Shown here: one piece after another, positions 13,807 to 52,381 of the stretch
Position numbering within the stretch: the first letter of the stretch is position 1
How the letters are laid out: the number at the start of each line of letters is the position of its first letter
IMG/VR virus record: IMGVR_UViG_3300025410_000009
Source: a virus
Lineage: Duplodnaviria > Caudoviricetes
DNA length: 64,000 nt
Reading direction: 5' to 3' (one strand)
Notes under the pieces: model-generated
Databases searched by the model: none
Told to the model about the DNA's origin: nothing
What the model saw: only the letters and a program-made list of their open reading frames with translations
Position numbers and translations under genes: made by a program

Positions 13807-13810
13807 TACA

Positions 13811-26658: not shown

Positions 26659-26679
26659 GTGTGTTCCTTGTTAGCCTTT

Positions 26680-26708: not shown

Positions 26709-26722
26709 GTGCCGGGTTATTG
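26694..26722 (-). terminator. Intrinsic terminator after the AAA+ gene
   Basis: 11-bp stem CAATAACCCGG/CCGGGTTATTG followed by TTTT on the - strand. Confidence 0.75.
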
Positions 26723-26726
26723 CTGT

Positions 26727-35825: not shown

Positions 35826-37112
35826 TCAATACCTATAAGTGTCTGACTTGAATGGCCCTGTGGTGTTGACACCAATGTATGCTGCCTGTTCATCGGTCAG
35901 TGCAGTTAGTGTAGCATTAATCTTGGCCAAATGCAAGCTAGCAACTTTTTCATCTAGATGTTTAGGCAACAGATACAGTTGGCCTCGAACATATTTGTCA
36001 GCATTGTTGAACATTTCAATCTGAGCAATGGCCTGATTGGTAAATGAATTTGACATAACAAAACTGGGGTGTCCGGTAGCACAGCCAAGATTCACCAAAC
36101 GTCCTTTGGCCAAAACAATGATGCGTTTGCCATCTGGGAATACAACATGATCCACTTGTGGTTTGATTTCTTCCCAGGTCAAGTCTGACAAGCTGGCAAT
36201 ATCAATCTCGCTGTCAAAGTGTCCAATGTTGCACACAATGCTTTGATTACGCATTTGTTCCATGTGTGCACGAGTGATCACATTGATGTTGCCGGTGGCA
36301 GTGACAAAGATGTCGGCCTTGTCGGCAGCATAATCCATTGTGACCACACGATAGCCTTCCATGGCAGCTTGTAGTGCACAGATGGGATCAACTTCGGTTA
36401 CCCATACTTGAGCGCTCAGTGCTCGCAAGGCTGCAGCCGAACCCTTGCCCACATCGCCAAATCCGCACACTACAGCCACTTTGCCAGCAATCATGACATC
36501 AGTGGCACGTTTGATAGCATCCACTAGACTTTCTCTGCAACCATACAAGTTGTCAAATTTGGTCTTGGTCACTGAGTCATTGACATTGATAGCAGGAATA
36601 CGCAAGGTACCGGCAGCAATACGTTCAACCAATTTGTGAATACCAGTGGTGGTTTCTTCGGTGACACCAATGATGCCATCTAGCAATTCGGGATAGAGAT
36701 CGTGTACACGGCCAGTCAAGTCATGTCCGTCGTCTAACAACATGTTGGGAGTCCAACCATCGGGTCCACGAACTGTTTGGTCAATACACCACCAGTATTC
36801 TTCTTCGGTTTCGCCCTTCCAGGCAAACACAGGAATACCCAGATCAGCAATGGCGGCTGCAGCATGATCCTGTGTAGAGAAGATGTTGCAACTGCTCCAA
36901 CGCACACTGGCACCCAAGGCCACCAAGACCTTGATCAAGACTGCAGTTTGAATGGTCATGTGCAATGAACCAGTGATACGTGCACCTGCTAACGGCTGTT
37001 GTGCTTGATATTCTTGCAAGATAGACATCAAGCCGGGCATTTCGCTTTCGGCAATGGCGATCTCTCGATGTCCCCATGCTGCCAGGGAGATGTCTGCTAC
37101 TTTGTAATCCAT
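35826..37112 (-). CDS. ahcY: Adenosylhomocysteinase (SAH hydrolase)
   Basis: [60 protein letters not shown] and [14 protein letters not shown]. Confidence 0.97.
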
Positions 37113-37122
37113 GTTATTCCTT

Positions 37123-37530
37123 TTAATTTTTATGATGTTGCCACACAGTGTCGGATCCACCTAGGTGTCCCCAATCACTGTCTACTGTCAATTTACTTGA
37201 AATGCCACCACGTGGGCGGAACTCAATTTCTAATCTAATACGATCGGGCTCGTAAGCTGCCATCAAGTGCTTGTACATGACATCTAGCGCCCGCTCATAA
37301 CTAATTATGGTACTTCGGTACTGGAACAAATAATTCTTTAGACTCTTGAGTTCTATAGTTTTATCTTTGCCGTAGAACCATATGGTAATAAAGCCAAAGT
37401 CGGGTTGGTCACGAACACCCAGGAAAGTGAATTCTGGGATTGTGATTTTCTGTTCGTAACCACGTGCAGCATTGGGTAGAGATTTTAGGATCGAACCATC
37501 GATCGTGTTCCACAGTTTCTTTTCAGTCAT
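37123..37530 (-). CDS. queF: QueF type I-like T-fold protein lacking the catalytic Cys
   Basis: [14 protein letters not shown] aligns to QueF PEFTSLCPxTGQPDF with C replaced by G. The QueF motif ELKSLKNYL, the downstream conserved Glu (SYE) and F.PRGGIS are retained. Confidence 0.75.
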
Positions 37531-37532
37531 GA

Positions 37533-38624
37533 TTAAAACAAGTTAATTTTTTCCCAAGGCAATTCAACCTTGCCAAAATGTCCGTAATTGGTGGTTGCGC
37601 TGTAGATTGGACGGAACAGATCAAAACGATCAATAATGCCCTTGGGAGTAAGATCCACGTTGTCTTGAATCCACTGAGTCAGTGCACGACTGTTATGATC
37701 ACTTTCAACATAAAAGCTCATGGGATCTTTCATGCCAATGGCATAACTGATCTGCACAGTGGCCCATTTGGCTCGACCAGTGGCCACAATGTTCTTGGCC
37801 AAGTAGCGCATCATGTATGCTGCCGAGCGATCCACCTTGGTGGGGTCTTTGCCCGAGAAAGCACCGCCGCCGTGTGGAGCATAACCGCCATAAGTGTCCA
37901 CAATGATCTTGCGTCCAGTTAATCCGGTATCACCATCAGGTCCACCAATCACAAAACGGCCAGTGGGATTGATAAAGAACTCGGTGTGACTATCAATGTA
38001 CTTGGCTGGAATTGCAGATCTAATGATTTGATCTACTCGTGTACGCACAGTTTCAATATCAACATCGGGTGCATGCTGTGTTGAGCAAACAATCTTGGCA
38101 ATACGCACTGGATTGTTGTTGTCATCGTATTCAAAAGTGACTTGACTCTTGGCATCGGGCCGCAACCAAGTTTCGCCACTTTTTCTAGCAAGTGCAAGTG
38201 CCTGTACCACTTGGTGGCTCCAGTAGATGGCACTGGGCATCAAGTTACCAGTTTCAGTAGATGCATATCCAAACATGAGACCTTGGTCGCCAGCACCAAA
38301 AGTGTCGGTGCCTAGTGTAATGTCAGCACTCTGTCCGTGTAAGAGATTGGTAATCTGCACATCGCGCCAGTCAAAACCTTCTTGTTCATAACCGATATCT
38401 TTGATTACATTACGAATAGTGGTTTCGACTTGAGCGTTGTCTAGTGTGCCCTTATACTCACCGGCCACTATCACTTTGTTAGTGGTAACCAATGTTTCAC
38501 ATGCACACCGCATGGTGGGGTCTTGGTGGGCCATGACCAAATCAAGAATACCATCACTGATGGCATCTGCCACCTTATCTGGATGTCCTTCGCTAACACT
38601 TTCGCTTGTAAATAAGTAACTCAT
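37533..38624 (-). CDS. metK: S-adenosylmethionine synthetase
   Basis: LFTSESVSEGHPDKVADAISD, GAGDQGLMFGYA, DTGLTGRKIIVDTYGG and GGGAFSGKDPTKVDRS. Start at MSYLF. Confidence 0.97.
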   Translation of the reverse strand: MSYLFTSESVSEGHPDKVADAISDGILDLVMAHQDPTMRCACETLVTTNKVIVAGEYKGTLDNAQVETTIRNVIKDIGYEQEGFDWRDVQITNLLHGQSADITLGTDTFGAGDQGLMFGYASTETGNLMPSAIYWSHQVVQALALARKSGETWLRPDAKSQVTFEYDDNNNPVRIAKIVCSTQHAPDVDIETVRTRVDQIIRSAIPAKYIDSHTEFFINPTGRFVIGGPDGDTGLTGRKIIVDTYGGYAPHGGGAFSGKDPTKVDRSAAYMMRYLAKNIVATGRAKWATVQISYAIGMKDPMSFYVESDHNSRALTQWIQDNVDLTPKGIIDRFDLFRPIYSATTNYGHFGKVELPWEKINLF

Positions 38625-38644
38625 ATTTTCCTTTATATATTTTT

Positions 38645-38923
38645 TTAAACTGTAACCAATGCCCATATCAGGTGTTCGTCTCTGCTGTGCCACCGTGTTT
38701 CATAAACTGGTTCACCAGGACCAGTCCATGTTGCGGTGCCTTGATAGCCACGCCGGAACCAAATAAGTTTATCGGTAAGTGCACACCGTTTGGGCAACAG
38801 CGCAAACTTTTCTTTCCATACCGCTCTATGATAAAATGCATCCTGATGGAATTTGTACCAGTGTCCATCACTCATCAGCTCAGGACTTTTTGCAAGTTGG
38901 CCTTCATAGCTGAATCCAAACAT
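38645..38923 (-). CDS. Hypothetical protein
   Basis: Start MFGFSYEG, 1 nt after the queE stop. Confidence 0.5.
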   Translation of the reverse strand: MFGFSYEGQLAKSPELMSDGHWYKFHQDAFYHRAVWKEKFALLPKRCALTDKLIWFRRGYQGTATWTGPGEPVYETRWHSRDEHLIWALVTV

Positions 38924-38924
38924 G

Positions 38925-39773
38925 TCAAGTGCCCCATTCGTTCTTGAATAGCGGTACTTGCAATCGATCACTATAACGCCAACCACGTGTCAGTGCCATT
39001 AAGGCCACTGCTTTGTTGTTTAATGCATATACACTTTCAACACCGCCCACTGGCATCAAATAAACATGTCCAGTAAATCCAGCTCTACGATATTCGTCAA
39101 CTGCTTGCTCGGCATCACGCAAATCTTGCTCGGTGGATACAACAAACTTCAAATAGGTGGTTCCCACTTCTTCGTATGCACACACAATCTCGGGCTTGAT
39201 AGCATCTTCCCACTTCTCGCCGCTTGCTGGAAGTTTAGCACTCACTGAGAATGTGATTTCGTTATCAAAACCAGTACCTATCCATTCAATTAAATAGTCT
39301 TTAAATTCTGGAGTTAAGTTTTGAGTACCATTTGTTTCAAAGGTGATTTCTTTTAGATCTGCCATCTTGGGATGACTTAACAAGTCAGGATAAGCACGTT
39401 GCCAACCCAACAAGGGCTCGCCGCCCGTGATCACCAAATGTTCATCTTTCCACGTACCATGCGGAATAATATCCATAATACGCTCGGCAATTGCGTCAGT
39501 ATCAAGTAAGGGAGATAGATGCTTAAAATCAGGATGCCAACTGGCATAGCTATCACAACCGGTAGTGACAAGAGGAAGTTCTTCATATTTGTTATACAAG
39601 TGCATCACTTGGGCAAGGTCTTCAGCTTCGGTACTCAGCTGGCCTCGTGGCATGCCAAATCCTGCACAGCGGAAATTACAGCCGAAAGTACGTAAAAAGA
39701 CACTAGGTACACCCATGTACCTTCCTTCTCCCTGTACGCTGTAAAACAGTTCTGCAATTTTAATCTTGCTCAT
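38925..39773 (-). CDS. queE: 7-carboxy-7-deazaguanine synthase (radical SAM)
   Basis: ELFYSVQGEG.YMGVPSVFLRTFGCNFRC...GCDS, VITGGEP, ETNGT, YLKFVV and RLQV. Confidence 0.93.
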   Translation of the reverse strand: MSKIKIAELFYSVQGEGRYMGVPSVFLRTFGCNFRCAGFGMPRGQLSTEAEDLAQVMHLYNKYEELPLVTTGCDSYASWHPDFKHLSPLLDTDAIAERIMDIIPHGTWKDEHLVITGGEPLLGWQRAYPDLLSHPKMADLKEITFETNGTQNLTPEFKDYLIEWIGTGFDNEITFSVSAKLPASGEKWEDAIKPEIVCAYEEVGTTYLKFVVSTEQDLRDAEQAVDEYRRAGFTGHVYLMPVGGVESVYALNNKAVALMALTRGWRYSDRLQVPLFKNEWGT

Positions 39774-40038
39774 AGACAGTGGACCATTTCTTTAGTTTTG
39801 CAATTTTGTTGTCGGCAGCTACACTGATCTGTTCACTGCCCACTATGTTGAATTTGATACACAAATCAATCATGGCTTGTAAATCACCCAGCTCTTCGGC
39901 CAAGTGTTCACGGTTGGTTTTAGGCTTACCGGGCTTGACGTTGTCTAAACCAAAACGATTACATTTACTGATGGCTTGTATAACTTCGGCACATTCTTCG
40001 GACAGAATGTTCATGACTTCAACAACTTGTTTATTCAT
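39760..40038 (-). CDS. MazG-like all-alpha NTP pyrophosphohydrolase
   Basis: ILSEECAEVIQAISK...LAEELGDL (ExxE...ExxD). Start reassigned to MNKQVV. Confidence 0.7.
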   Translation of the reverse strand: MNKQVVEVMNILSEECAEVIQAISKCNRFGLDNVKPGKPKTNREHLAEELGDLQAMIDLCIKFNIVGSEQISVAADNKIAKLKKWSTVYEQD

Positions 40039-40174
40039 CATCATGCCGATTGTTTTGTTCAATGCCGTACTGTTCATACAACCACTTGATAAAACGCTCA
40101 ATGTCAAGGCTGGGATATGCATACATTTTGTATGCCACGGTGACTTTCTCTAACCATTCTTTATCTTTTAACAT
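40031..40174 (-). CDS. Small hypothetical protein (47 aa; not in ORF track)
   Basis: Read manually as MLKDKEWLEKVTVAYKMYAYPSLDIERFIKWLYEQYGIEQNNRHDDE*. It has a GAGG RBS and overlaps the start of the next gene. Confidence 0.6.
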   Translation of the reverse strand: MLKDKEWLEKVTVAYKMYAYPSLDIERFIKWLYEQYGIEQNNRHDDE

Positions 40175-40245
40175 GTATACCTCACTACTATATTTTGCTA
40201 TGATAACACAAATTGCTTAAAAAAGCAACAACGAGTTTTACCAAA

Positions 40246-40440
40246 CTAGATTTGGTTCCAGTGGCATATGACGCCGGCTATGATAAAACAATTGGTCATG
40301 ACATACGACAGCACAATCACAGTGCGTATACCAGCAACACGATCGGCTTCTTGATCGGTGTTGCTGGTCTTTTCGCCCAGGGCCTTGGCCCATAGACGCC
40401 AAAGCGTTTTAACCTTCGTAGATAGCCGAATTAGCACCAT
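40246..40440 (-). CDS. Small membrane-associated hypothetical protein
   Basis: WRLWAKALGEK...IRTVIVLSYVMTNCFIIAGVICHW has a hydrophobic C-terminal segment. The start is uncertain. Confidence 0.5.
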   Translation of the reverse strand: MVLIRLSTKVKTLWRLWAKALGEKTSNTDQEADRVAGIRTVIVLSYVMTNCFIIAGVICHWNQI

Positions 40441-40894
40441 GTTCGAATACTTCAACTGATTTGATTCTTACACTGGGGTTAATGGGGTAACGTTGGTCAC
40501 CTTGAGTCAGTAGCTCGGCCATTTTGTCGTAGCACATCTTGGCAAACATTTCGCAACCGACACCAGGCACAATGCGTAAATCGCATACACCGCTGTCTTC
40601 GAATCCACCACCAATGGCGTTCAGTTGCTTGAAAGTTTCCAAGTGTGGATCATCTTCGGCAATGACCAAGGTGTGATCAAACATGGTGTCGGCCCAGGCC
40701 TTGAATCCTTTGAGACCACCAAAGTCCATGCACCAGTTTTTGTCATCCAGTGTGTCGCACTCAAATACGAGCTTGATGCCAATTGAGTAACCATGCAATG
40801 TCGAGCAGTGGCTATGTGAAGCACGCCACTGTCTAAAACAGCAGGACAGCCCTCTGTCGTTACCGTATGTTTTTGTTGAGTAAAATTTTGCCAT
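40409..40894 (-). CDS. queD: 6-carboxy-5,6,7,8-tetrahydropterin synthase
   Basis: CSTLHGY (CxxxHG), W..DFG.LK...FDH and GCE..A...E.FE. Confidence 0.92.
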   Translation of the reverse strand: MAKFYSTKTYGNDRGLSCCFRQWRASHSHCSTLHGYSIGIKLVFECDTLDDKNWCMDFGGLKGFKAWADTMFDHTLVIAEDDPHLETFKQLNAIGGGFEDSGVCDLRIVPGVGCEMFAKMCYDKMAELLTQGDQRYPINPSVRIKSVEVFEHGANSAIYEG

Positions 40895-40911
40895 GTTATT
40901 CTCCTATGTTA

Positions 40912-40975
40912 ATTATAGCATAGGCGGCGGAGTTTGTAAAGCGGGACGATGCCGATAGACCGCTAGAGATATTTA
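40912..40975 (-). promoter_or_regulatory. Dual promoter for queD: late TAAATA (40970-40975) and TTTACA-N17-TATAAT (40912-40940)
   Basis: Both elements read directly upstream of the AGGAG RBS. Confidence 0.6.
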
Positions 40976-41170
40976 TTGCAGGTTGTAGTGGCTGAGAATA
41001 GATTGCTCAGCTTCAACATTTTGCTTTCGTGCAAGATTGGCACATTCGCGCACCAGCAGTTCAGCAAAGTGTTCAAGCATGGCACCACCCACTTCGGGAT
41101 AGTGACTACCGCCTACTTCCAAGGCAAGTTCGATAAATTTGGGATTGGTCATTGTGGGTTTGGTGTTCAT
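40973..41170 (-). CDS. Hypothetical protein
   Basis: 65-aa ORF (FAELLVRECA) coupled by an ATGA overlap. Confidence 0.55.
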   Translation of the reverse strand: MNTKPTMTNPKFIELALEVGGSHYPEVGGAMLEHFAELLVRECANLARKQNVEAEQSILSHYNLQ

Positions 41171-41568
41171 GATGGTTGTTTAAGTAAATGCATGGAAATA
41201 ATTTTGCCCAATTCGCGATCGAAGTTTTTCTTATCGTCGGGGATGATATAAAGTTCAGCCTGTGAATTGCTGGCAGCACAGCGTACCACATAGCCGCCAT
41301 TGGCTTTCACAATCGAAAATGTAAGTTCAGAGTTTTCAAGCATAGTGTTAATCAAGTTTCTTCTAGAAAGGGTGTTTAAGGTATCGGAAAGGTTGAAGTT
41401 ACCATATTGGTTAGTGCCCCAAACACCGGTTTGGTTAGTGGTATAGGTGTATCCGCCACTACCTACGGCACCAATAGTCAATGGTGCAAGTGTTGCACCG
41501 GGAATGACAGTACAGCCGGCAGTATTGCCTGACAGCGTGATGTTGTTTGAAGTTGCCATGTTTGACAT
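41167..41568 (-). CDS. Hypothetical protein; C-terminus resembles 46127..46429
   Basis: Start MSNM with GAGG RBS. C-terminal TFSIVKANGGYVV...FDRELGKIISM. Confidence 0.55.
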   Translation of the reverse strand: MSNMATSNNITLSGNTAGCTVIPGATLAPLTIGAVGSGGYTYTTNQTGVWGTNQYGNFNLSDTLNTLSRRNLINTMLENSELTFSIVKANGGYVVRCAASNSQAELYIIPDDKKNFDRELGKIISMHLLKQPS

Positions 41569-41569
41569 A

Positions 41570-42469
41570 TCAAGCCTCGGGGTCAACAGCCAAGCCTTGC
41601 CAGGCCTTGATTTTGATTTCATCAACATCGGCTACATCTTCGCTCCACGAACTGATCCATCTGGCACCGGTCCATTTGGCTTGATGTGTCCAGCTGTTGC
41701 GTCCAGCAGTTTTAATTGTGTAGATGCCCTCACGTGCTGGTTTGATTTTTTTAGGGAACCACTCGGTCATGGGGTACTCAATGTCATCCATGTTGGTATA
41801 CTTGATGTACTGACCATTGTTGTATTTTTGCGAGCCAGCAATGTAGAAACCAAAGTCGCTGCTCTTACCGTCGGTGCCACCACCGTCGTTGTCGATATCA
41901 ACATCATTGTAGCTGACACCCACAACAAACTCTTCACAATCAAAATCAGTCAACAACAATGTCAATTTAGTGATGTCAAACGGTGCTGTGAGTTCAATAG
42001 CACCCTCGAAGAAAGTGCCCTTTTCGTTACTAGTGCCTACGAATACCACTACATCGTCACCACGTTCGTCGATCCAAATTTCTTCTGTAGTTGACAGTTC
42101 AGGGCCGTCGTCTAAACCATTACAGTCGCCTAGTTCGATTTCCAGTACAGAATTCCCGTTTTCGTCAAATATTTCCATAGAGCCAGCATCTTTACTGACA
42201 CCGTTGATGTGTCCCATGTCATCGCACTCGTACCATGAGCCAGGCGAAAATGGCCACATTTCTTCGGGAATGTTGTTTTCTTCTGCGTATTCGCTGTTCC
42301 ATGCAAAGTCGCTAAGGTCCAGTCTACGACTGCAAAAGTAATCGTAGATTTCTCGCGATACGGTGCCCATGACACGTTCGCCACCATAACCCCACATACT
42401 GACACGATATGTGCGTGGAGTAAACTTTAAAACTTCTAATAGATATTCTTGATCTTCAATTGTGGCCAT
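41570..42469 (-). CDS. Acidic hypothetical protein
   Basis: Start MATIEDQE with AAGG RBS. D/E-rich, with C-terminal module PMTEWFPKKIKPAREGIY. Confidence 0.7.
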   Translation of the reverse strand: MATIEDQEYLLEVLKFTPRTYRVSMWGYGGERVMGTVSREIYDYFCSRRLDLSDFAWNSEYAEENNIPEEMWPFSPGSWYECDDMGHINGVSKDAGSMEIFDENGNSVLEIELGDCNGLDDGPELSTTEEIWIDERGDDVVVFVGTSNEKGTFFEGAIELTAPFDITKLTLLLTDFDCEEFVVGVSYNDVDIDNDGGGTDGKSSDFGFYIAGSQKYNNGQYIKYTNMDDIEYPMTEWFPKKIKPAREGIYTIKTAGRNSWTHQAKWTGARWISSWSEDVADVDEIKIKAWQGLAVDPEA

Positions 42470-42473
42470 GATG

Positions 42474-43220
42474 TTACCTTGGTGCAAATTCTTGCTGTAG
42501 TTTGATGTTGTCAAAAAATTCTTTTTTGGTATTACCGTCGTCTTTAAAAGAACCTTTTAGTACAGTGGTCTGTGTTAGACTAGAGTGTGCCATGATGCCA
42601 CGATTCTCACAGCATCCATGTGTCATCTGCATGTATACACCGATGTCATCTGCGCCTGTGGCCTTGCCTATTTCTTTAGCAATGTCGTTACAAAGTTCCT
42701 CCTGGAGAGTACCCCGTCGGGCACACCATTGTGCAATACGTGTATACTTTGATAAGCCAATAAGTTTCTGAGCCGCAATAATGCCAATATAAGCAACACC
42801 AGTAACGGGTTGGTGATGATGGCTACACATGCTACGAAGCTCACTACGAACCACTAGCATGCCCTCATAACGATCCGCTGAGTCATTTGGAAATGCTGTA
42901 GCGTCGGGTGCTGGGTCATATCTACCTGCCATTACTTCGTTAAAATACATCTTGGCCAGTCTACGTGCTGTACCTTTACTGTTAGGATCGGTTTCGCGAT
43001 CAATGAGTAATCGATCTAGTACTGTTTCAAAAGCCTCTGCGGCTTCGTCAATAAGTTTTTCTTTGAATTCTTCACTAACGTATTCGCTAATGTTATCACC
43101 TGCCCAAAAACGCTTGCCCTCGCGTTTCATTTTAAAGCGAAGGTGATCGCCTAAGTAGGCTTCTTCATATCCGCCATCGCCTGCCATTGCGTCCAGGCCT
43201 GTTTCATTTTTAGTTGTCAA
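42474..43220 (-). CDS. folE: GTP cyclohydrolase I
   Basis: TARRLAKMY, SMCSHHHQP, GLSKYTRI, QEEL and HGCCENRG. Confidence 0.95.
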   Translation of the reverse strand: MTTKNETGLDAMAGDGGYEEAYLGDHLRFKMKREGKRFWAGDNISEYVSEEFKEKLIDEAAEAFETVLDRLLIDRETDPNSKGTARRLAKMYFNEVMAGRYDPAPDATAFPNDSADRYEGMLVVRSELRSMCSHHHQPVTGVAYIGIIAAQKLIGLSKYTRIAQWCARRGTLQEELCNDIAKEIGKATGADDIGVYMQMTHGCCENRGIMAHSSLTQTTVLKGSFKDDGNTKKEFFDNIKLQQEFAPR

Positions 43221-43262
43221 TTTATGGTTCTCCGAGTTAAAGACGAGGATGTCTTTGTGTTT

Positions 43263-43291
43263 ATTGTATAGTATTTAGATCTTGAGGTCAA
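43263..43291 (-). promoter_or_regulatory. folE promoter TTGACC-N17-TACAAT with nested TAAATA (43272-43277)
   Basis: Hexamers and spacing read directly. Confidence 0.65.
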
Positions 43292-43295
43292 GCAA

Positions 43296-44273
43296 TTATG
43301 GCAGTACATTATACCGTTTTTGCCAATTCCATGCAGTTGATATGATATTTTCTATATCACTATTGACCGGACGCCAAGGTGTCGCTGATTGAAATGCTGT
43401 GCTGTCAGCCACCAGTTCATCGGGGTCGCCAGCTCGAGGATCGCCCATTTGATAAGTGATCGGTGCACCAACTACGCGACTACAGCCAGCAACTATTTCC
43501 TGATTAGTGTGCCCACGACCAGTTCCCAAATTATAGATTCTTGACTCACCGGGTGTCATGGTGTGTGCCAGTCGTACTGCTTCTAGGTGTGCTTGAGCAA
43601 TATCGGTCACATGCAGGTAATCACGTATGCAGGTGCCGTCACGAGTGTTGTAGTTGTCGCCGTACAGCGTAAAAGGTTCTTGGCGCTGATGGGCACTCAG
43701 CACTCGCGGAATCATATGCGTATCATCTGCTACATGGCCCAGGTCAACATCGGCATCGGCACCGGCAGCATTAAAATAACGCAGTATCACACCGCGATGT
43801 TGATGTGCTTGGCAGTGATCTTGTATCACTTGCTCGCACATGAGTTTGCTCCACCCATAGGGATTTATGGGCTGTGTTGGTGCAGTCTCAGGGATTGGAC
43901 TGGTGCATTTGTTGCCATATGTGGCTGCACTACTACTGAACACAATAATGCCACGCCAATCGCTTAATTCCACCAACATTTGATTGGTTTTGGCCACATT
44001 ATTGCTATAATATTCGCCAGGATTGCCAATACTGGGACCTACTAGGCTAGTACCGGCACAATGCACAACAACACCAACCTTTTCAAGGTCAGCAGTGGTG
44101 GCAACGAAGTCGGCAAAGTCGCCCATGATCCAGTGGTCCAGGTATTTTGCTGCCTCGGGAATGGTACAATGTCGATCAATCCCAATCACACGGCAACCGG
44201 CCTCTTTGAACACCTTGGCAGTATGAGCACCAATGAATCCTAGAGCGCCGGTAATGATTACAGATCTTGACAT
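43296..44273 (-). CDS. galE: UDP-glucose 4-epimerase
   Basis: GALGFIG, VVHCAG.S.VG.S...P..YY.NN, FSSSAATYG, YGWSK, LRYFNAAGA and DGTCIRDYLHVTDIA. Confidence 0.9.
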   Translation of the reverse strand: MSRSVIITGALGFIGAHTAKVFKEAGCRVIGIDRHCTIPEAAKYLDHWIMGDFADFVATTADLEKVGVVVHCAGTSLVGPSIGNPGEYYSNNVAKTNQMLVELSDWRGIIVFSSSAATYGNKCTSPIPETAPTQPINPYGWSKLMCEQVIQDHCQAHQHRGVILRYFNAAGADADVDLGHVADDTHMIPRVLSAHQRQEPFTLYGDNYNTRDGTCIRDYLHVTDIAQAHLEAVRLAHTMTPGESRIYNLGTGRGHTNQEIVAGCSRVVGAPITYQMGDPRAGDPDELVADSTAFQSATPWRPVNSDIENIISTAWNWQKRYNVLP

Positions 44274-45448
44274 CAGTATTTGGTTTCGCGTGTGTGACGA
44301 CGATAGTCAGTGCCCATACGCAACATGCTGTCACCTTGGCCCTGCAGGATATCAATGATACGATCTACAGTACCATTGTTGCGATCACTGATCCGACCCA
44401 TGTCAGGATGAGGCCATGCCAACAGTTGTTCCAGCTTGTTGAGCGCATCTTCTATGCTCCAAGGCACATAAAGTCTAGTATGGTCGTTGGCAAAAGTTTC
44501 AGGAAAACTACGATAAGCGGGATATAATACATTACATCCAAGAGCATCAGCTTCCGATACAGTATTCGATACCCAGTCTTGTAACGCACAATTAAACACC
44601 ACACGGCTATCGTTGACAATGTTATAGTAATCATTCTTCTCAAGATTCTCGTAGATCTTGAGTTGACCCTGTGCAACCAAGTCGCGTGTGCGTTGCATGT
44701 AGCTTTCGCTGTTGGACTTGAGCCAACCACCGCTACATACACAAAACTCTAGAATTGACCCTGGATGCCGAGCAAAGTATGCTTCAATCAAGTCCATGTA
44801 AAAGTCTGGTTGTTTCTCTTGATCCCAACGTGCGCTGAACACCACACGATGTTTACGATCTTCAAATGGTTTGATATTGGCCACACGACCTTGCACTTCT
44901 GCTTTGCCAAATGCCAGGCCTGAAATGTTGTAGATGGGAGCGGTCCAGCCAGCAACCTTCATGTGCATGACCATTTCTTCGTTGGTGGCTAGTACACCAT
45001 CTACGAACGAGTCAACCATCTTTTCATATGCCGACATCCATTTTGACATGCCCCATACATGAACAAAATCATCTGGATCAATGGATTGAGCAAGACAACG
45101 GACAAAAATCCTAGGACGGTGAAGAGAATCGATTTGATCCAAAATATAAGGCAAGCTCTCGATACCGGGCTGAAACATGTCTTCAAAGTAGACAACATCT
45201 TCATTGTTCAATTCTCCTGCTTTCATCATGCGAATCAAGTTCATGAGCTGGCTCATACCAAAGTAGGTACGACCATGTGCATCCAACACCTGTCCGGTAA
45301 CAATGGCTTGATCGTTACTGAGTGTGTCTCCGGGAACCACAACATAGTCGATACCACGGCGATCAAACACCGCAGTATTCCACTCTTGTAACTGCAGAGT
45401 GTATCTTGCCTTATAGGGCTCTAGGCCCATATAATACAATTTACGCAT
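44273..45448 (-). CDS. GT-B (GT4/alpha-glucosyltransferase-like) glycosyltransferase
   Basis: Start reassigned to MRKLYYMGLE. VVFSARWDQEKQ (R...EK) and DWVSNTVSEADALGC (GT4-type Ex7E region) indicate a retaining GT-B enzyme. Confidence 0.7.
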   Translation of the reverse strand: MRKLYYMGLEPYKARYTLQLQEWNTAVFDRRGIDYVVVPGDTLSNDQAIVTGQVLDAHGRTYFGMSQLMNLIRMMKAGELNNEDVVYFEDMFQPGIESLPYILDQIDSLHRPRIFVRCLAQSIDPDDFVHVWGMSKWMSAYEKMVDSFVDGVLATNEEMVMHMKVAGWTAPIYNISGLAFGKAEVQGRVANIKPFEDRKHRVVFSARWDQEKQPDFYMDLIEAYFARHPGSILEFCVCSGGWLKSNSESYMQRTRDLVAQGQLKIYENLEKNDYYNIVNDSRVVFNCALQDWVSNTVSEADALGCNVLYPAYRSFPETFANDHTRLYVPWSIEDALNKLEQLLAWPHPDMGRISDRNNGTVDRIIDILQGQGDSMLRMGTDYRRHTRETKY

Positions 45449-45671
45449 AGCGACCCTGCTTGATTGCCCAGCCCCAGTTGTCACGGGGCCACTTGCCACG
45501 CTTGGTACGCATGTAGTCACCATATGGGCTACGCTCATTGCCCAAGTCGCTCTCATCAAAGAAGTAACCTTGACGTACACAAAAATCGCGATACTCATCG
45601 AGGGTGTTGAAAATGTTTTCAACCTCGGGTTTCATACGCAAATACTTCTTAATCCATGCTGGCTGTGCCAT
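45441..45671 (-). CDS. Hypothetical protein
   Basis: 76-aa ORF with AAGGA RBS. Confidence 0.6.
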   Translation of the reverse strand: MAQPAWIKKYLRMKPEVENIFNTLDEYRDFCVRQGYFFDESDLGNERSPYGDYMRTKRGKWPRDNWGWAIKQGRYA

Positions 45672-45680
45672 ATTATTTCC

Positions 45681-46130
45681 TTAAACGCTAATAAGTTGAG
45701 GGAGGTGAGTTTCATATTCAATGAAGGCTCCGTTTTCACCATCTTCGGAAACTTCAATCCAGACCGAACGGCCAGGATATCGTGCAGCAATCTGTACATA
45801 CAGATCGTCTGAAATCATTTCACAAGATTTATAATCAAGTTTTAGTACTGCATCTTGGCTATTGTACAACGAAATCAACCAACGTTTGAATTGGATAAAT
45901 TCAATGTCACGATCGTTGTGCAACACGTCGATGGCCACTCTAAAGTGGAACATGTGACGATGTGGGCTGGCCAAAAAAGATACATCATATTCGTCGCCAG
46001 TGGCCAAATAGGGATCTGTGCCGGCTGCCGGGTAGCAGTGAATTCCTTCTTTTTCAAAGGTGACCCAAATTTTACGTCGGGCACGTTGTTTGATACGTTC
46101 GATTTGATCGCGTTCTTGATATGTGGTCAT
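45681..46130 (-). CDS. dpdL: QueD-paralog T-fold protein, DpdL-like (predicted CDG decarboxylase)
   Basis: SFLASPHRHMFHFRV matches the LxxxHRHxF signature I recall for DpdL. Also DRDIEFIQFKRWL and SCEMI. It lies inside the deazaguanine cluster. Confidence 0.65.
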   Translation of the reverse strand: MTTYQERDQIERIKQRARRKIWVTFEKEGIHCYPAAGTDPYLATGDEYDVSFLASPHRHMFHFRVAIDVLHNDRDIEFIQFKRWLISLYNSQDAVLKLDYKSCEMISDDLYVQIAARYPGRSVWIEVSEDGENGAFIEYETHLPQLISV

Positions 46131-46429
46131 GCTCGTAGTCTTTCCATGCTGATAATGTGTGTGAGTTGTTCGTCAAAGGTTTCACCATCGTGTAACACAT
46201 GCAGGTGCCGCACAATTTCGTCTTGCTTTCGATTGTAGTGATGCACATGTATCACACATCCGCCCTGTGCTGGAATCACTTCAAAGTTGATACCGTTGGG
46301 CAAACGTGCCGATTCTCGTTCGCTAGTGCTTGTAAGTTTAGCCGTGACATATTCTATCTTGTCTTTAGTTAGAGACTCTTCGTAATCCCAAGCCCAATGT
46401 AGCAATCTATGCAGGGTTCGTCTAATCAT
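46127..46429 (-). CDS. Hypothetical protein
   Basis: Start MIRRTLH, 1 nt after the upstream stop. Confidence 0.55.
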   Translation of the reverse strand: MIRRTLHRLLHWAWDYEESLTKDKIEYVTAKLTSTSERESARLPNGINFEVIPAQGGCVIHVHHYNRKQDEIVRHLHVLHDGETFDEQLTHIISMERLRA

Positions 46430-46430
46430 G

Positions 46431-46946
46431 TTAAACCTCATCTTTTGAGTATTCACGCCAAGCGGTGAAATTGTCTCGGTTGGTCAAAGAGTGTAGGCTA
46501 TGACACCATACACCAAAATTGGTAGCGGCAAAGTCTTTGTCGTCTAACTTAATTGTAGCATTAAAACCCAGCTGTTGTAAATAGGGCAATTTCACCGAAA
46601 TCATGGGAATAAAATTCATATGTTCGGTTAGGCCACCCTCTAACAAGCCCTCAACTGAAGCAACATCCAGATCCAAAGTGCAGGTATAGCCCAGATCGAG
46701 ACAGCTTCTAATCATGGTTTCCCATGGTCGCCACCCGTCAATGTCATTGATTGACAGTTGAGGGAAACTCATGTTGGCACCAAAATAGATGTGTTCAACT
46801 GGTTGACTGCCATTGGTCAGGGCAGCAGCAATGTCATCTAGTGATTGTACACCAACCACAAACAGGGTATACTGTCCGTATGCAGGTGTACGTTCAATTT
46901 CAGTGCCGTAGAAGAACTGTACATTTTCATGTCCTTGTCGGTTCAT
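46431..46946 (-). CDS. Hypothetical protein in the deazaguanine cluster
   Basis: 171-aa ORF (FFYGTEIERTPAYG..TLFVVG; HIYFGAN) immediately downstream of the TGT-like gene. Confidence 0.65.
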   Translation of the reverse strand: MNRQGHENVQFFYGTEIERTPAYGQYTLFVVGVQSLDDIAAALTNGSQPVEHIYFGANMSFPQLSINDIDGWRPWETMIRSCLDLGYTCTLDLDVASVEGLLEGGLTEHMNFIPMISVKLPYLQQLGFNATIKLDDKDFAATNFGVWCHSLHSLTNRDNFTAWREYSKDEV

Positions 46947-46947
46947 T

Positions 46948-48546
46948 TTAACTCTCCAAATCAGTTAATCGAGTTTCGTCTAGTGTGGGTTCAACATAGG
47001 GTTCTTCTGAGAACAGCATGCCAAACATGGTGTTGGAATTCTTGGCCTTTTTGCCTTTGAATCCACGAGTGCCCACAATCTCCATCCAGTAAGTGTCGTA
47101 CTTTTCAATGATGCTTTCGGCTGTGGCTCGATCGGGTGCAGCAAAAATGCTGTCGACAATGTCTTCAAAATAGGCATAGTCTCCAGTACTGCGTCGCATC
47201 ATGGCCGGATGTTCGCCGGCATCAAAGCGTCGATTGGCCTCCTGAACCGCAGTCAAGTGCATCCATACATTATGACCCATCAACAGCATGTAGCTGAAAC
47301 TGTCCCAGCTGGTTTTGCCCCATTTGCCGTTTTTGTTGAAATCAGGCAGTACTGCATAAAGATCAGGATCTTTAAAGTTTTCTTCTGTGATGGTGACTCC
47401 GGGCTTGGGTGTACCTGCTTTGTAGATACAGATATCACGCATGGTCAACATGTCACTGACTGGACTTTCTTGCCAGTTGTTGTAGATACCGTCAGCCACA
47501 ACACCAGTTGACCACTTGCGTGTGTCAGTGGCATATTTTTTATCATCAGCACTGGGAGCCATACGATAGCTCCATTTGCCATCCTGCGGGAAAACATTTT
47601 CGTAATAGACCTGTCCGTTGGCAGTGGCCAAGAATGGACTGGCACAGTCAAAACTGATTGTGAAATTGGGATTCACATACCGACGAACTGCACGTTGTAT
47701 CACAGTCAGCAACACAGCCCATTCCAGCTTGCTGGTGCCCAAGAAGTGCATCCAGTCGTGCACACCAGTTTGCAGTAGATTATCGTAGCGTAGGGCCACT
47801 AGGCGTTTCAACACAAGATGTACATCACACATGTTTTGACCACCCATGCCCCAGCCGTTGAAATGACGTCCTGGGTACTTTGCAGGATCACAGTAGTCCT
47901 TCATGGTCTGATACCAGTCTTCGGCTTCGTTGTGATTGGCACCCTGTAACACATTCAAGAATCGAGCACCACCATTTTCAATGCCGCGGCGATTGGCAAT
48001 AAAGTATTCGTTGTTGAATTTGGTCGCAGCCACAGCTTGACTGTGTGTGGTGATTTGGCATTTACTACTGGCAAAAGGATCCTTGACCACCCATGTGGGA
48101 ATATCCAGTGTCATTCCGTAATCGGCAATGCCATCTAACCATTTGAGCACAGCCTCACGTTTGGCCTGTGCACGTGGGCAACCGGAGTTGGCTTTCCAGT
48201 CACCTTCCCACAAGCCTTTGGCAATTTGGAATCCGCCCGAGTCACCCAGCACAGTGGTACCAGGTTCACGATTGCGAACCATGTCTTCGCTCCAGTCCTG
48301 TCGAGTAAGATCAAGATTGGCATGTCCACCTGAGTATAGACTCCAACGATACGGGAACAGGGCTTTCTGACTATTGAGCCAGTTCATTTGCTCCATGTCA
48401 ACAAATCCCTGTGGGAATCGTGCAGGATCCACATACGGTTCATTGCGTTGACGACCCACAAACGTGGCATAAAAACCGCTAATGGCCGGTAAGAATACAG
48501 CGTAGTCGTTTTGTTTAGCGGTTAAGTTATCCTGTTGTTGTTCCAT
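46948..48546 (-). CDS. dpdA: tRNA-guanine transglycosylase-fold protein, likely a DNA deazaguanine transglycosylase (DpdA-like)
   Basis: LGDSGGFQI, TLDIP, NVLQG, GWGMGG, HFLGT, nucleophile-bearing SFDCASP and C-terminal GHN. Context: folE/queD/queE. Confidence 0.78.
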   Translation of the reverse strand: MEQQQDNLTAKQNDYAVFLPAISGFYATFVGRQRNEPYVDPARFPQGFVDMEQMNWLNSQKALFPYRWSLYSGGHANLDLTRQDWSEDMVRNREPGTTVLGDSGGFQIAKGLWEGDWKANSGCPRAQAKREAVLKWLDGIADYGMTLDIPTWVVKDPFASSKCQITTHSQAVAATKFNNEYFIANRRGIENGGARFLNVLQGANHNEAEDWYQTMKDYCDPAKYPGRHFNGWGMGGQNMCDVHLVLKRLVALRYDNLLQTGVHDWMHFLGTSKLEWAVLLTVIQRAVRRYVNPNFTISFDCASPFLATANGQVYYENVFPQDGKWSYRMAPSADDKKYATDTRKWSTGVVADGIYNNWQESPVSDMLTMRDICIYKAGTPKPGVTITEENFKDPDLYAVLPDFNKNGKWGKTSWDSFSYMLLMGHNVWMHLTAVQEANRRFDAGEHPAMMRRSTGDYAYFEDIVDSIFAAPDRATAESIIEKYDTYWMEIVGTRGFKGKKAKNSNTMFGMLFSEEPYVEPTLDETRLTDLES

Positions 48547-49693: not shown

Positions 49694-52381
49694 TTAATCC
49701 CATGTAAACAAGCTGTCAAAAGTGGTCTTGATTTCGGTATGGTTGGGAATGTCCCAGTCCAGCACACCCAGCAAGTTTTCTACCTTTTGATCCACAATGC
49801 CAGCTTCCATTTTGTTGTCGTCAAACGGCAATTCTTTGAACCATTGCGGGATGTGACTTTCGTCAGTGGGATAACCCACACTGGTATAACCCATGGGGTT
49901 GTCTCGCAACTTGCACACAATGGTCTTCATGCCATCCACAATGGCCATGCTGTAGTTGTCACCGTGCATGCGACGCAGATTGTTCCAGTTCAGTGCAGCT
50001 CGCACATGTCCGGGCATGTTGGCTTTGCCTGATTTGGCTTCCAGTGCACCGTATTTGGTCAAGTTGTTGACACGTTTGGGTGTGCCCTTCTCCCATGCTG
50101 GGCGATCCTGGAACAGCAATTTAAAGTCGCGAACCTTGTCGTAGATGTGCTCTTTTTCAGCGCCGGTCAAGACATCTAGCAAGATCTCACTTAAAAAGTC
50201 TTGTACCACCTTGGGTGTGTCTGATCGCTTCAAGTCCAAGCCCATGGCCTTGAGTTTGCCTGGCTTGCCGTCTACATCTAGTCGTTTGCCTTCAAGGTCA
50301 TAAATCAAGGCTGCGTAGCGTTTTTTCTTAATAAAAAGACCTTTTGATGCCACCAGTTCTCGACCACCCTTGATCAGGGCACCCATGTCTCTGGGAGCAT
50401 GAAATGCACGTTCCATGAATGCCGGGAAGCTGTTGTTGACCTGTTCGGCAATGTTGTCGTAAAGTTCAACACAGATTTCTCGATTCCATTCCATCTGTCC
50501 GCTTTCAACTTCGTCGCGAATGGCCGGCCATGCACTAAAATACACCGAGTCTGTGTCACCGTAAATGATGGCATCACCCACGTGATTGTACTCGCCAGTG
50601 ACACATTCGTTTACAAATGCATCCATGTGTCTAGCAATCACACGACCAGTCAGTGTGGTACTCTGTCCAATGCGCTTGTCAAAGAATCTGCAATGCGGAT
50701 TAAGAATAGCACCATACAAACTGTTCAAGTTAATCTTTTTAACCAGTTGTCGTTTGTCCCAAAATGCAATTTCTTCGGGTGTGGTTGCTGCTTTCTTTTT
50801 GGCCTGCATTTCCTTACGTTCAGCATACCAGCGTTCCAGCAAGCCGGGCACAATGCCCTTTTGATCGTATTTGAAAATGGTACCGTTGGCACTCAGGATC
50901 CAGGGTTGATTGCTGTTAAACACCATGTTCCAAACATCAGCGGCACTGACCACATTACTGCTGCCATCCTCCCAGTCTATGGTAATCTCGGTACCGATTT
51001 CGCCATTCATGACTGCGGTATACTCCAAGCTGCCAAATGTATCTTCCCATGCATCAGTAAACGAACTGCCTTTCACAGTCTTGCCGTTTACCACTTGATC
51101 AGCCATGCGAGCGGCCAGGTAGTGATCAGTCAGTGTGGGTCGCAATTGGCCAACGATGGTTTCACAGGCCATGTTAAGGGCGCGAATAGCCGAGGGATAG
51201 AGCGAGTTGATGTCAATGGCTCCGATGTATTCGTGGATGCCTTTTTTGGGATAAGCAACATAGGCACCTGCTGCTTGCGAGTCTTCACGGTCATCTTTTC
51301 TACTCCTGTTTTGAACAATTAAACCTTGTTGATGTGCTTCGTTAATGATGGCCTGTTCGGTAACAGCCACAGCGCCCATTGTGGTGGGCAATAGCACAGT
51401 ATTGTCGTGCGCCAATTCGTTGGCTAGATCCAAGAAGCGTAACTTCTTGTCAAATTTGGCCAACAGCATGGTGTCTTGTCGGTTATAGTCAATAAATGTA
51501 GGAAAGTCCTTGTTGTACAGTTGATCTAGAGTACCTTCATATTGAGTCTTGCGCTCGCCTAATTCGTATTCGGCAATGGCATCCAAACTGTAACTATGAC
51601 GTTCTTCATAGGTGTATTTGCGATACAGTTGCATGTAGTCTAGGTGCACACGACCCAACAAGTCGAACGTGATGTTTTCAGCACCAAAGCGTTCAAATGT
51701 GCGTTGTTTGGGCAGTTGGTTCCACAAACACAATCTACGTGTATCATCACGGCTCAATACTTTGGTGATACGCATGACTGTGTAAGGAATATCGAAGCCT
51801 TCACTGTTCCAACCACTAAGGATATCGGCGTCATCGATCAGGTTCAAAAACGTGTCCAGTAGATCTTCTTCGCGATCAAACAGGAAACAGTTGTCGTATC
51901 TATCGGCAATTTCCTGTGCAGTCTCCCAAGAATAACTGCGTGGCGGAACCACTAGTGTGACCAACTTGTCCAACCAGTCTAGATATACTGTAATGGCAGT
52001 GATGGCATTGAAGGGATCTTCGGGCTTGCTGTATCCACGCACCGGATCAAAGTCAACTTCAATGTCGAAAAATGCCGTTTGCAGTCGCGGTGAATTGGCG
52101 CCTAGATAATTTTCTTCCAGGCAACGGAATACCGGATTGATGTCGCTTTCCCAGAGTCTGCGATCGCCATGGTTTCTAAGTTCTTTTTGAAACTCTTTGC
52201 CGTTGCGTGTGCTGAATCTGCCTACAGTGGTTCCGTAGATGGTACGGAACTTGCCACGTGGATCATCGTAATAGAACACATAGTTAGCTGGGTATTCTCG
52301 ATATACCCTTTGACCATCAACTCGCTCCACAATGTGAATACGATCTTTGGCCTTGTCAAAAAGAGCGTCTACATAACTCAT
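49694..52381 (-). CDS. polB: Family B DNA polymerase (T4 gp43-like)
   Basis: ExoI FDIEV, ExoII GWNSEGFDIPY, ExoIII YNRQD, motif A DINSLYPS, motif B KINLNSLYG and motif C YGDTDS. Confidence 0.97.
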   Translation of the reverse strand: MSYVDALFDKAKDRIHIVERVDGQRVYREYPANYVFYYDDPRGKFRTIYGTTVGRFSTRNGKEFQKELRNHGDRRLWESDINPVFRCLEENYLGANSPRLQTAFFDIEVDFDPVRGYSKPEDPFNAITAITVYLDWLDKLVTLVVPPRSYSWETAQEIADRYDNCFLFDREEDLLDTFLNLIDDADILSGWNSEGFDIPYTVMRITKVLSRDDTRRLCLWNQLPKQRTFERFGAENITFDLLGRVHLDYMQLYRKYTYEERHSYSLDAIAEYELGERKTQYEGTLDQLYNKDFPTFIDYNRQDTMLLAKFDKKLRFLDLANELAHDNTVLLPTTMGAVAVTEQAIINEAHQQGLIVQNRSRKDDREDSQAAGAYVAYPKKGIHEYIGAIDINSLYPSAIRALNMACETIVGQLRPTLTDHYLAARMADQVVNGKTVKGSSFTDAWEDTFGSLEYTAVMNGEIGTEITIDWEDGSSNVVSAADVWNMVFNSNQPWILSANGTIFKYDQKGIVPGLLERWYAERKEMQAKKKAATTPEEIAFWDKRQLVKKINLNSLYGAILNPHCRFFDKRIGQSTTLTGRVIARHMDAFVNECVTGEYNHVGDAIIYGDTDSVYFSAWPAIRDEVESGQMEWNREICVELYDNIAEQVNNSFPAFMERAFHAPRDMGALIKGGRELVASKGLFIKKKRYAALIYDLEGKRLDVDGKPGKLKAMGLDLKRSDTPKVVQDFLSEILLDVLTGAEKEHIYDKVRDFKLLFQDRPAWEKGTPKRVNNLTKYGALEAKSGKANMPGHVRAALNWNNLRRMHGDNYSMAIVDGMKTIVCKLRDNPMGYTSVGYPTDESHIPQWFKELPFDDNKMEAGIVDQKVENLLGVLDWDIPNHTEIKTTFDSLFTWD

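Follow-up and report, generated by a model that had tools for sequence, protein, structure and literature searches.

A GT4-type glycosyltransferase linked to DpdL in a predicted QueC-less 7-deazaguanine DNA-modification module of a jumbo phage

FolE, QueD, and QueE convert GTP into 7-carboxy-7-deazaguanine (CDG). In the Cellulophaga phage phiST, a pathway of this kind is combined with DpdL, a protein defined by the signature LxxxHRHxF (Cui, Hutinet et al., NAR 2023; PMC10516641). The product of the phiST module was measured to be plain 2′-deoxy-7-deazaguanine (dDG) at full replacement, and the phiST group is the only place where the product has been measured. The decarboxylation of CDG to 7-deazaguanine by DpdL and the insertion of this base by a DpdA3-type transglycosylase are proposals from the same literature (PMC10516641). 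In that study, no dDG was obtained in E. coli from dpdL and dpdA of phage ACP17 as the only genes, and its authors raised the possibility that further enzymes are required. The DNA of phage PA5oct resists several restriction enzymes, which its authors took as a sign of modified guanine (PMC12191111). Here, we describe a gene cluster at positions 37,123 to 48,546 of a 64,000-nucleotide stretch of viral DNA (Duplodnaviria; Caudoviricetes; IMG/VR record IMGVR_UViG_3300025410_000009), referred to as the window in its full length, in which a module of the DpdL type is accompanied by genes for a glycosyltransferase (GT) and a uridine diphosphate (UDP)-glucose 4-epimerase (GalE).

The cluster shares with phiST the genes for FolE, QueD, QueE, a MazG-like protein, DpdL with its LxxxHRHxF motif, and a divergent DpdA, as well as the lack of QueC and the position next to a replicative polymerase. 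In contrast, phiST has no homologue of GT, GalE, or a 171-residue protein (u171) of the window, and it has a small P-loop protein annotated as "ATPase containing protein". The first-pass annotation of the window, made from its letters, had listed folE, queD, queE, a tRNA-guanine transglycosylase (TGT)/DpdA-like gene, an LxxxHRHxF T-fold gene, a glycosyltransferase gene, and galE; all of these were found, tightly packed on the minus strand, and its reading of FolE, QueD, QueE, DpdA, and DpdL as a QueC-less module was upheld as a system of the same kind as the dDG system of phiST. No QueC was found in the window by phmmer and tblastn with E. coli QueC or by a six-frame scan for the PP-loop motif SGGxDS, in agreement with that annotation. 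In five large related IMG/VR contigs, one of which is 331 kb long and 95% complete, nothing scored above the cut-off for QueC, with only sub-threshold PP-loop matches. Every testable feature of the DpdL type was found in the sequence, and what appears to be new relative to the phiST module is the addition of GT, GalE, and u171.

The cluster is part of a long series of minus-strand genes for replication and nucleotide metabolism, which starts at a family-B DNA polymerase (PolB; 49694-52381). The closest cultured relative of this polymerase is that of the Sinorhizobium jumbo phage Phosso (52% identity), followed by those of Rak2-like phages. Two genes for unknown proteins of 291 and 132 aa separate the polymerase from the DpdA-like gene, which is followed by u171, u109, DpdL, a 76-aa open reading frame (ORF), GT, GalE, a promoter-like site, and FolE, and then by two unknown genes, QueD, the MazG-like gene, QueE, MetK, a QueF-like gene, and AhcY, all on the minus strand. 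The coordinates agree with the earlier placement of GT and galE between dpdL and folE. The 76-aa ORF that separates DpdL from GT had not been recorded in the first pass, and neither had MetK and the QueF-like gene lacking the catalytic cysteine, which occupy the low end of the range. A megablast search with the region gave no match among cultured phages. The locus is best explained as a 7-deazaguanine DNA-modification module of the DpdL type, lacking QueC and carried by a Rak2/Phosso-like jumbo phage from lake water.

The linkage of GT to DpdL was examined in two sets of IMG/VR loci. Set 1 consisted of 80 loci fetched via the DpdA-like protein at 70–82% identity, more than 594 such loci being in existence. 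Set 2 consisted of 80 further, independent loci, mostly on contigs of about 10 to 130 kb, fetched via an alignment of distant GT homologues that are 33–44% identical to the query. The loci of set 1 shared a single order, PolB, DpdA, u171, DpdL, GT, GalE, and FolE, and every DpdL locus with 2.5 kb or more of flank in both directions contained GT (46/46), at a median gap of 231 nt. In set 2, DpdL lay within 1.5 kb of GT in 65 of the 80 loci with a median gap of 54 nt, and FolE, QueE, QueD, u171, and GalE were found in 64, 58, 50, 25, and 12 loci, respectively. GT was again present wherever DpdL had enough flank (56/56), which brings the count for the two sets to 102 of 102 loci. The transglycosylase in about 49 loci of set 2 was of the ordinary phage DpdA type, which is annotated as queuine tRNA-ribosyltransferase in cultured phages, and it was of the divergent type seen in the window in 23 loci. 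Because both types occur, GT tracks DpdL and the CDG pathway whatever the DpdA type or the gene order.

When 185,579 prokaryote genomes were scanned for the pattern, the GT family gave one confirmed match, located on a metagenome-assembled genome (MAG) contig with the arrangement u171-DpdL-GT-DpdA. Among 50,697 cultured-phage records, 29 contained a DpdL homologue and 18 of these also contained GT, namely those of the PA5oct group, Phosso, ACP17, BUDD/X1, BCSR5, and BUCT-ZZ01. These cultured phages resemble the window in having the DpdA-like protein, GT, and DpdL together (EST35_0316 to 0318 in PA5oct, where EST35_0317 is GT), with FolE, QueD, and QueE close by; DpdL adjoins GT in ACP17, BUDD, BUCT-ZZ01, PA5oct, and Phosso, and the two are about 3 kb apart in BCSR5. 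They differ from it in that no coupled GalE was present within the stretches examined, and their genes are mostly annotated as hypothetical. Full-text literature searches found no published discussion of the GT of cultured DpdL phages. The phiST group has DpdL and no GT homologue, and two distant GT representatives lay on contigs of about 4 kb with no informative gene context. A separate scan with the single protein P0011 gave no match. The linkage between GT and DpdL is far beyond chance, and the GT family looks phage-specific and almost confined to DpdL clusters, in support of the tight association of GT and galE with the deazaguanine genes pointed out in the first pass. By comparative genomics, a dedicated GT4 enzyme is an integral, phage-specific member of the DpdL module.

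The start of the GT gene was placed at Met59 of a long ORF, where all 67 homologues begin. Homologues formed 827 clusters (50% identity) at E values up to 0.001 among 1.84 billion representative proteins. The AlphaFold2 model of GT, built from a 60-sequence alignment, had a predicted local distance difference test score (pLDDT) of 94.9 and a predicted template modelling score (pTM) of 0.92. Foldseek matched this model to MshA, BshA, PimA, glycogen synthase, LmbT, and SenB with E values of about 1e-12, the probability being 1.00 for MshA, BshA, PimA, and glycogen synthase; the GT sequence itself gave no match in PDB. Arg207, Lys212, and Glu299 were invariant in the 60 sequences. Arg207 and Lys212 align with the RLDxxK motif of the GT4 enzymes WlaC and MshA, and Glu299 would correspond to the GT4 glutamate motif according to the family consensus. 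Glycos_transf_1 was matched by 38 of the 60 family members (E up to 0.01; best 4.5e-10). GT is predicted with high confidence to adopt a GT-B/GT4 fold with the conserved Arg/Lys/Glu motif intact. It had been called GT4/AGT-like in the first-pass annotation; the likeness to GT4 enzymes stood, and the likeness to AGT did not, as neither T4 alpha-glucosyltransferase (AGT) nor T4 beta-glucosyltransferase (BGT) was among the 50 Foldseek PDB matches listed.

We read the locus as a QueC-less DpdL module with a GT that adds a hexose to 7-deazaguanine, and we assign this reading a probability of about 0.5. In this scheme, FolE, QueD, and QueE would turn GTP into CDG, DpdL, probably with u171, would decarboxylate CDG to 7-deazaguanine, and the DpdA-like transglycosylase would exchange 7-deazaguanine for guanine in DNA, while MazG may deplete a competing nucleotide. 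Acting downstream of DpdL, GT would transfer a hexose from a UDP-sugar to 7-deazaguanine, which could already be part of the DNA or still be a free base awaiting insertion. The sugar is probably galacto-configured here, supplied by the translationally coupled GalE, and the pathway would end in a deazapurine with a sugar attached, by which G sites would be protected against host nucleases. We infer that the DNA would carry dDG or the 2′-deoxynucleoside of CDG (dCDG), with a sugar on the deazaguanine. GT is regarded as an add-on step after DpdL because DpdL occurs without GT in the phiST group and GT almost never occurs without the pathway. The broader proposal is a realistic prospect of somewhat less than even odds: that virion DNA in this phage, and in hundreds of phages with the DpdL-GT pair, including PA5oct, ACP17, Phosso, and BUCT-ZZ01, holds 7-deazaguanine glycosylated by a phage-specific GT4 enzyme after DpdL, that the sugar varies by lineage via GalE, DegT-like, and other nucleoside diphosphate (NDP)-sugar genes, and that the linkage, whether of the N-, C-, or ester type or an O-glycoside formed on a new product of DpdL, is without known counterpart among DNA modifications.

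Several points weigh against the addition of a hexose to 7-deazaguanine. dDG has no hydroxyl group, so the sugar would have to be linked through N or C, be esterified to CDG, or sit on a different DpdL product. We know of no GT4 enzyme that forms C- or N-glycosides of nucleobases. The product chemistry comes solely from the phiST group, which is without GT, and the decarboxylase activity of DpdL is itself a proposal. The GT of the window scores 17–21 bits, under the Pfam gathering cut-offs of 25–26. The GT family is acidic (median isoelectric point (pI), 5.8), and its N-terminal, acceptor-side domain is rich in conserved Asp, Glu, and aromatic residues, with few basic residues and no basic groove. 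Glu10, Asp56, Asp90, Asp124, Asp127, and Glu142 are among the conserved acidic residues of GT. Because of these properties, and because AGT and BGT were missing from the matches listed, duplex DNA is a poorer fit as acceptor than a small molecule. Together with the resemblance of GT to GT4 enzymes that use small molecules, the composition of the acceptor domain makes the acceptor lean to a free base or a flipped-out base.

The same features would suit GT and GalE serving a target other than DNA, such as a protein of the virion, a glycan of the host envelope, or a soluble glycoside of a pterin or deazapurine. The position in the cluster would then come from shared early expression or from precursor supply by FolE and the T-fold proteins, and the DNA would contain plain dDG or dCDG. 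The closest structural relatives of GT (MshA, BshA, LmbT, and SenB) use small molecules, and pteridine glycosyltransferases put sugars on products of the FolE and 6-pyruvoyltetrahydropterin synthase (PTPS) pathway (PMC4133829, PMC5683033). The pteridine glycosyltransferases of cyanobacteria and Chlorobium are functional analogues only: like GT, they are UDP-sugar transferases associated with a product of GTP cyclohydrolase I and a PTPS-type enzyme, but they are cellular, make soluble pterin glycosides, and have no QueE or DpdA. GT follows DpdL, QueE, and DpdA and not merely FolE, and it does so with two unrelated DpdA types and in many gene orders, at median distances of 54–231 nt from DpdL. 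It is located among replication genes, not structural genes. A role in pterin glycoside synthesis would predict cellular copies, whereas the single match in prokaryote genomes was a MAG contig with the same module, and a free soluble glycoside would bring no obvious benefit to the phage. The sugar-tailoring genes also count against a non-DNA target, which is considered unlikely.

Known DNA glycosyltransferases offer a further comparison. The T4 alpha- and beta-glucosyltransferases and the metaviromic 5-hydroxymethylcytosine (5hmC, hmC) DNA glycosyltransferases are, like GT, phage-encoded users of UDP-sugars placed inside a base-modification pathway, and GT has the GT-B fold in common with the T4 enzymes and with some metaviromic ones. 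They differ in acting on 5hmC, in being BGT-like, and in having a basic DNA groove (10.1101/2023.12.21.572611), whereas the GT of the window is GT4-like and acidic, with no hmC pathway seen. If GT acted on another modified base, such as a hydroxymethyl- or hydroxy-pyrimidine produced by another part of the genome, its adjacency to DpdL would be incidental. The DNA glycosyltransferases mentioned in 10.1101/2023.12.21.572611 and in the abstract of PMC13326640 all use pyrimidine derivatives, and the words "purine" and "guanine" do not occur in the former survey. However, thyA (22668-23570) scored above the thymidylate synthase equivalog cut-offs and is canonical, which bears out the earlier view that no hmC acceptor is evident. 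Pfam scans, run on parts of the window and on ten families of neighbouring genes from related loci, gave no match to a hydroxymethylase or 5-methylcytosine (5mC) dioxygenase. The tight, lineage-independent coupling to DpdL would be left unexplained, and GT is unlike the T4 BGT-like DNA transferases. The near-absence of the GT family from cellular genomes and the sugar-tailoring genes speak against this possibility as well. We consider this alternative highly improbable.

Two identities were tried for GT and rejected. An enzyme of the T4 AGT/BGT type was discarded on the grounds given above: no sequence match in PDB, no such enzyme among the Foldseek matches listed, a canonical ThyA, and no hydroxymethylase seen. 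QTMAN/GTDC1, the tRNA-queuosine mannosyltransferase and nearest functional analogue, is of the GT4 type and attaches a hexose to a derivative of 7-deazaguanine in nucleic acid, and clusters of its family were language-model neighbours of GT at ranks 47 and 56. Unlike GT, QTMAN has the QTMAN_N domain (PF12038), which was not detected in 60 GT members at E values up to 0.01 or in 14 members at E values up to 1, and its acceptor hydroxyls are those of the queuosine cyclopentenediol, which the pathway of the window cannot make.

The stop codon of GT overlaps the start codon of GalE (TGATG), and GalE is, judging from this overlap, translationally coupled to GT. GalE followed GT in all 47 close relatives with at least 1.1 kb beyond GT, and, as described above, it was also found in 12 of the distant loci of set 2. 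A search against PDB matched GalE to entry 4twr (E, 1.5e-65), and the short-chain dehydrogenase/reductase (SDR) motifs GxxGxxG, SSS, and YxxxK were present in the alignments. At the position aligned with Tyr299, the gatekeeper of the E. coli enzyme, GalE has Leu, so that N-acetylated UDP-hexoses may also be used. The GalE of the window is about 42% identical to the syntenic GalEs of close relatives, while GT and the other cluster genes are 60–80% identical, which suggests that GalE was replaced by one of a different epimerase lineage. A half-size (about 205 aa) aminotransferase of the DegT/DnrJ type lies near GT and GalE in 38 close relatives, for example, at 14309-14938 of locus L031, and is not present in the window. 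This gene points to a diversifying NDP-sugar supply. The low identity of GalE and the DegT-like gene in these relatives indicate that the sugar-nucleotide part of the cluster varies between lineages. A HIT-domain protein recurs in 17 relatives.

The sugar-supply genes also bear on whether GT could belong to the pathway without leaving a sugar in the final DNA. GT would then produce a transient glycosylated or activated CDG or 7-deazaguanine intermediate used by DpdL, u171, or DpdA, or would act as a scaffold, and the product would be ordinary dDG. The outcome with ACP17 dpdL and dpdA agrees with such a role, since GT and u171 were not included and GT could be needed for dDG there, and dDG lacks a hydroxyl on which a stable O-glycoside could form. 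In contrast, phiST reaches full dDG replacement without GT. Moreover, GalE is fixed behind GT and relatives carry DegT-like tailoring genes, from which it would follow that it matters which sugar is used; this is typical of a final decoration and not of a leaving group. We regard a transient role as decidedly unlikely and retain the reading in which the hexose stays on 7-deazaguanine. Both the ACP17 result and the restriction resistance of PA5oct DNA are compatible with a component that was missing or with a modification not yet described.

The DpdA-like protein had no direct match in Pfam, PHROG, or NCBIfam. Its family profile (A5) matched almost only TGTs in PDB, and these matches were weak (best E, 0.0035). 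Asp102, Ser103, Gly104, Gly105, Gln107, Asp148, and Asp300 were invariant in the family. One jackhmmer profile united the DpdA-like protein of the window with the proteins in the DpdA position of ACP17, BUDD, BUCT-ZZ01, and PA5oct, and the identity to EST35_0316 of PA5oct was 37%. The motif LASPHRHMF of the window DpdL fits the DpdL-defining signature, which stands in place of the CxxxHGH motif of QueD. DpdL was 53% identical to its ACP17 homologue and 31% identical to DpdL of phiST. His31, Leu53, His57, Arg58, His59, Glu77, Glu104, Glu129, Asp130, and Glu132 were invariant in 28 sequences, and L...HRH.F was kept in 122 of the 139 DpdL homologues from the fetched loci.

The protein u171 was found in 77 of the 80 close loci, 25 of the 80 distant loci, and ACP17. 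DpdL and u171 were fused in a single ORF in L098-L100, L126, and L173, which represent at least three distinct sequences. The fusion ORFs, with DpdL as the N-terminal part and u171 as the C-terminal part, lie at 8247-8990 in L098, 8024-8956 in L126, and 4836-5615 in L173, providing a Rosetta-stone link. Because of these fusions, u171 probably acts together with DpdL. Gly14, Glu16, Gly24, Thr27, Phe29, Lys133, and Asp169 were invariant. Fold searches with the AlphaFold2 model of u171 (pLDDT, 82) gave only noise-level matches (best Z, 6.9; Foldseek E above 0.03), which included STAS, metallo-beta-lactamase, and partial TIM barrels such as QueE, and no neighbour above 0.79 was found in the language-model atlas. 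Complex prediction for DpdL and u171 gave a score of 0.00, which weighs neither for nor against binding. The stop codon of the 76-aa ORF between DpdL and GT overlaps the GT start (ATGCGTAA). The product of u109 and that of a 153-aa ORF at 41167-41628 on the minus strand were paralogues (jackhmmer E, 2e-15).

Table 1. Features of the cluster and its flanking unit, with their positions in the window and the basis of each assignment
Feature	Coordinates	Strand	Basis
DpdA-like DNA guanine transglycosylase, DpdA3-like, 532 aa	46948..48546	-	GDSGGFQ motif and family profile
u171, 171-aa protein, recurrent DpdL partner	46431..46946	-	No convincing structural match
u109, 109-aa unknown	46127..46456	-	No Pfam or PHROG match; in 13/80 close loci
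DpdL, QueD-like T-fold protein, proposed CDG decarboxylase	45681..46130	-	LASPHRHMF
Basic 76-aa ORF, DpdL/GT interval	45441..45671	-	Read from sequence; pI 9.1
GT4-family glycosyltransferase (GT-B fold, retaining family), 391 aa	44273..45448	-	Start at M59 of ORF 44273-45622
GalE, UDP-glucose 4-epimerase	43296..44273	-	NCBIfam TIGR01179 equivalog, 298.8 bits vs cut-off 262.3
Sigma-70-like promoter, GalE/FolE gap	43263..43291	-	TTGACC-17-TACAAT, 10/12 consensus matches only; whole scan not above shuffled expectation
FolE, GTP cyclohydrolase I	42474..43220	-	PF01227, E 4e-37
u314, 314-aa very acidic unknown	41570..42514	-	No Pfam match; C-terminus matches phrog_26541; pI 4.2
QueD, 6-carboxytetrahydropterin synthase, CxxxHGY variant	40409..40894	-	PF01242, E 1e-15
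MazG-like nucleoside triphosphate pyrophosphohydrolase	39760..40122	-	PF03819, E 1.4e-5, above cut-off
QueE, 7-carboxy-7-deazaguanine synthase (radical S-adenosylmethionine (SAM))	38925..39773	-	Five NCBIfam QueE models top, all sub-cut-off; weak Radical_SAM
MetK, SAM synthetase	37533..38693	-	Complete set of three S-AdoMet synthetase domains, E 1e-33 to 3e-57
QueF-like T-fold protein without catalytic cysteine	37123..37530	-	PF14489, E 7.5e-17; under NCBIfam QueF-II cut-off
AhcY, S-adenosylhomocysteine (SAH) hydrolase	35826..37160	-	PF05221, E 1.5e-127; PF00670, E 1e-79

Among the CDG-pathway genes, the Pfam matches of FolE and QueD were both above the cut-offs, and FolE was about 80% identical among close relatives. 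QueE shared 51% identity with the protein annotated as QueE in phage BUCT-ZZ01, and copies with 61–77% identity were found in the five large relatives. The QueD motif of the window is CSTLHGY, the canonical form being CxxxHGH; HGY was seen in about half of the QueDs from the fetched loci, including those of ACP17 and BUCT-ZZ01. Because u314 was present in just 7 of 80 relatives, it is probably outside the pathway. A small protein annotated as xanthine-guanine phosphoribosyltransferase was observed in other DpdL-GT clusters, at 7093-7554 of L081 (BUCT-ZZ01) and in 16 loci of L095-L174 (for example, 5266-5820 of L147), and not in the window. It hints at conversion of a deazapurine base to a nucleotide in some lineages, that is, at a pre-replicative route.

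The promoter-like site between GalE and FolE is followed by a GGAG sequence and the TTG start codon of FolE. Taken over all its matches, the scan for promoters and terminators did not exceed the shuffled expectation. The sequence TATAAATA was present as a single copy in the window, outside the cluster.

At the far end of the cluster, MetK, the QueF-like gene, and AhcY follow one another, and AhcY overlaps the end of the QueF-like gene. In the QueF-like protein, ELKSLKxY is retained and the SLCPxTGQPDF motif is changed: Gly takes the Cys position here, as it does in 119 of the 120 best homologues. Assignment as a true QueF, an NADPH-dependent preQ0 reductase, was rejected because the thioimide-forming catalytic Cys is replaced by Gly and the score lies below the NCBIfam cut-off. 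A role as a core reductase making the hydroxyl for GT was likewise rejected, since the gene is absent from the five large GT-bearing relatives and pairs with AhcY in a context without deazaguanine genes. Such a context is seen in L181 (9001-10693), where a QueF-like gene lies directly upstream of AhcY with genes for radical-SAM, B12-binding, and methyltransferase proteins and no deazaguanine cluster. More than 5000 metagenomic homologues of the Cys-less QueF-like protein were found, and its function may relate to SAM or SAH metabolism. On account of this distribution, MetK, the QueF-like gene, and AhcY probably form a neighbouring SAM-cycle unit that is separate from the DpdL-GT module. Nearby minus-strand genes encode a TylF-like O-methyltransferase (31815-32561), a gamma-glutamyl cyclotransferase-like protein (32806-33261), and an FkbM-type methyltransferase (52814-53527), and the two methyltransferases may account for the phage-encoded MetK and AhcY. 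A MoxR-type AAA ATPase gene followed by one for a DUF2201 metallopeptidase/VWA protein lies at 25393-27833 on the minus strand.

Some features of the related loci stand apart from the module. In L102, a uracil-DNA glycosylase (UDG) domain is fused to a 3′-5′ exonuclease domain (12333-13532) upstream of a family-A polymerase. In L095, an intein is present in a 648-aa protein (12785-14728). In L175, which derives from PA5oct, an annotated homing endonuclease gene splits the polymerase gene (265-1947).

To our knowledge, the natural DNA glycosylations known are all on pyrimidines, namely glucosyl-hmC, base J, arabinosyl-hmC, and glycosylated 5-hydroxycytosine (2026), and the DNA 7-deazaguanines that we know of number eight, all of them small. 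The first-pass annotation was not aware of any description of a glycosylated deazaguanine, and full-text literature searches found no such paper for DNA. The addition of the conserved GT and u171 to the module may explain why dDG could not be rebuilt from ACP17 dpdL and dpdA, where both had been omitted. The prediction is directly testable, as several GT-bearing phages are cultured on laboratory hosts, and DNA containing 7-deaza-dG can probably be prepared from commercial reagents. If it is true, this would be, as far as is known, the first sugar-bearing purine in DNA. A sugar on a deazapurine would represent a new class of DNA hypermodification and new GT4 enzymology, and it would bear on restriction, CRISPR, and glycosylase-based defences, as well as on sequencing chemistry.

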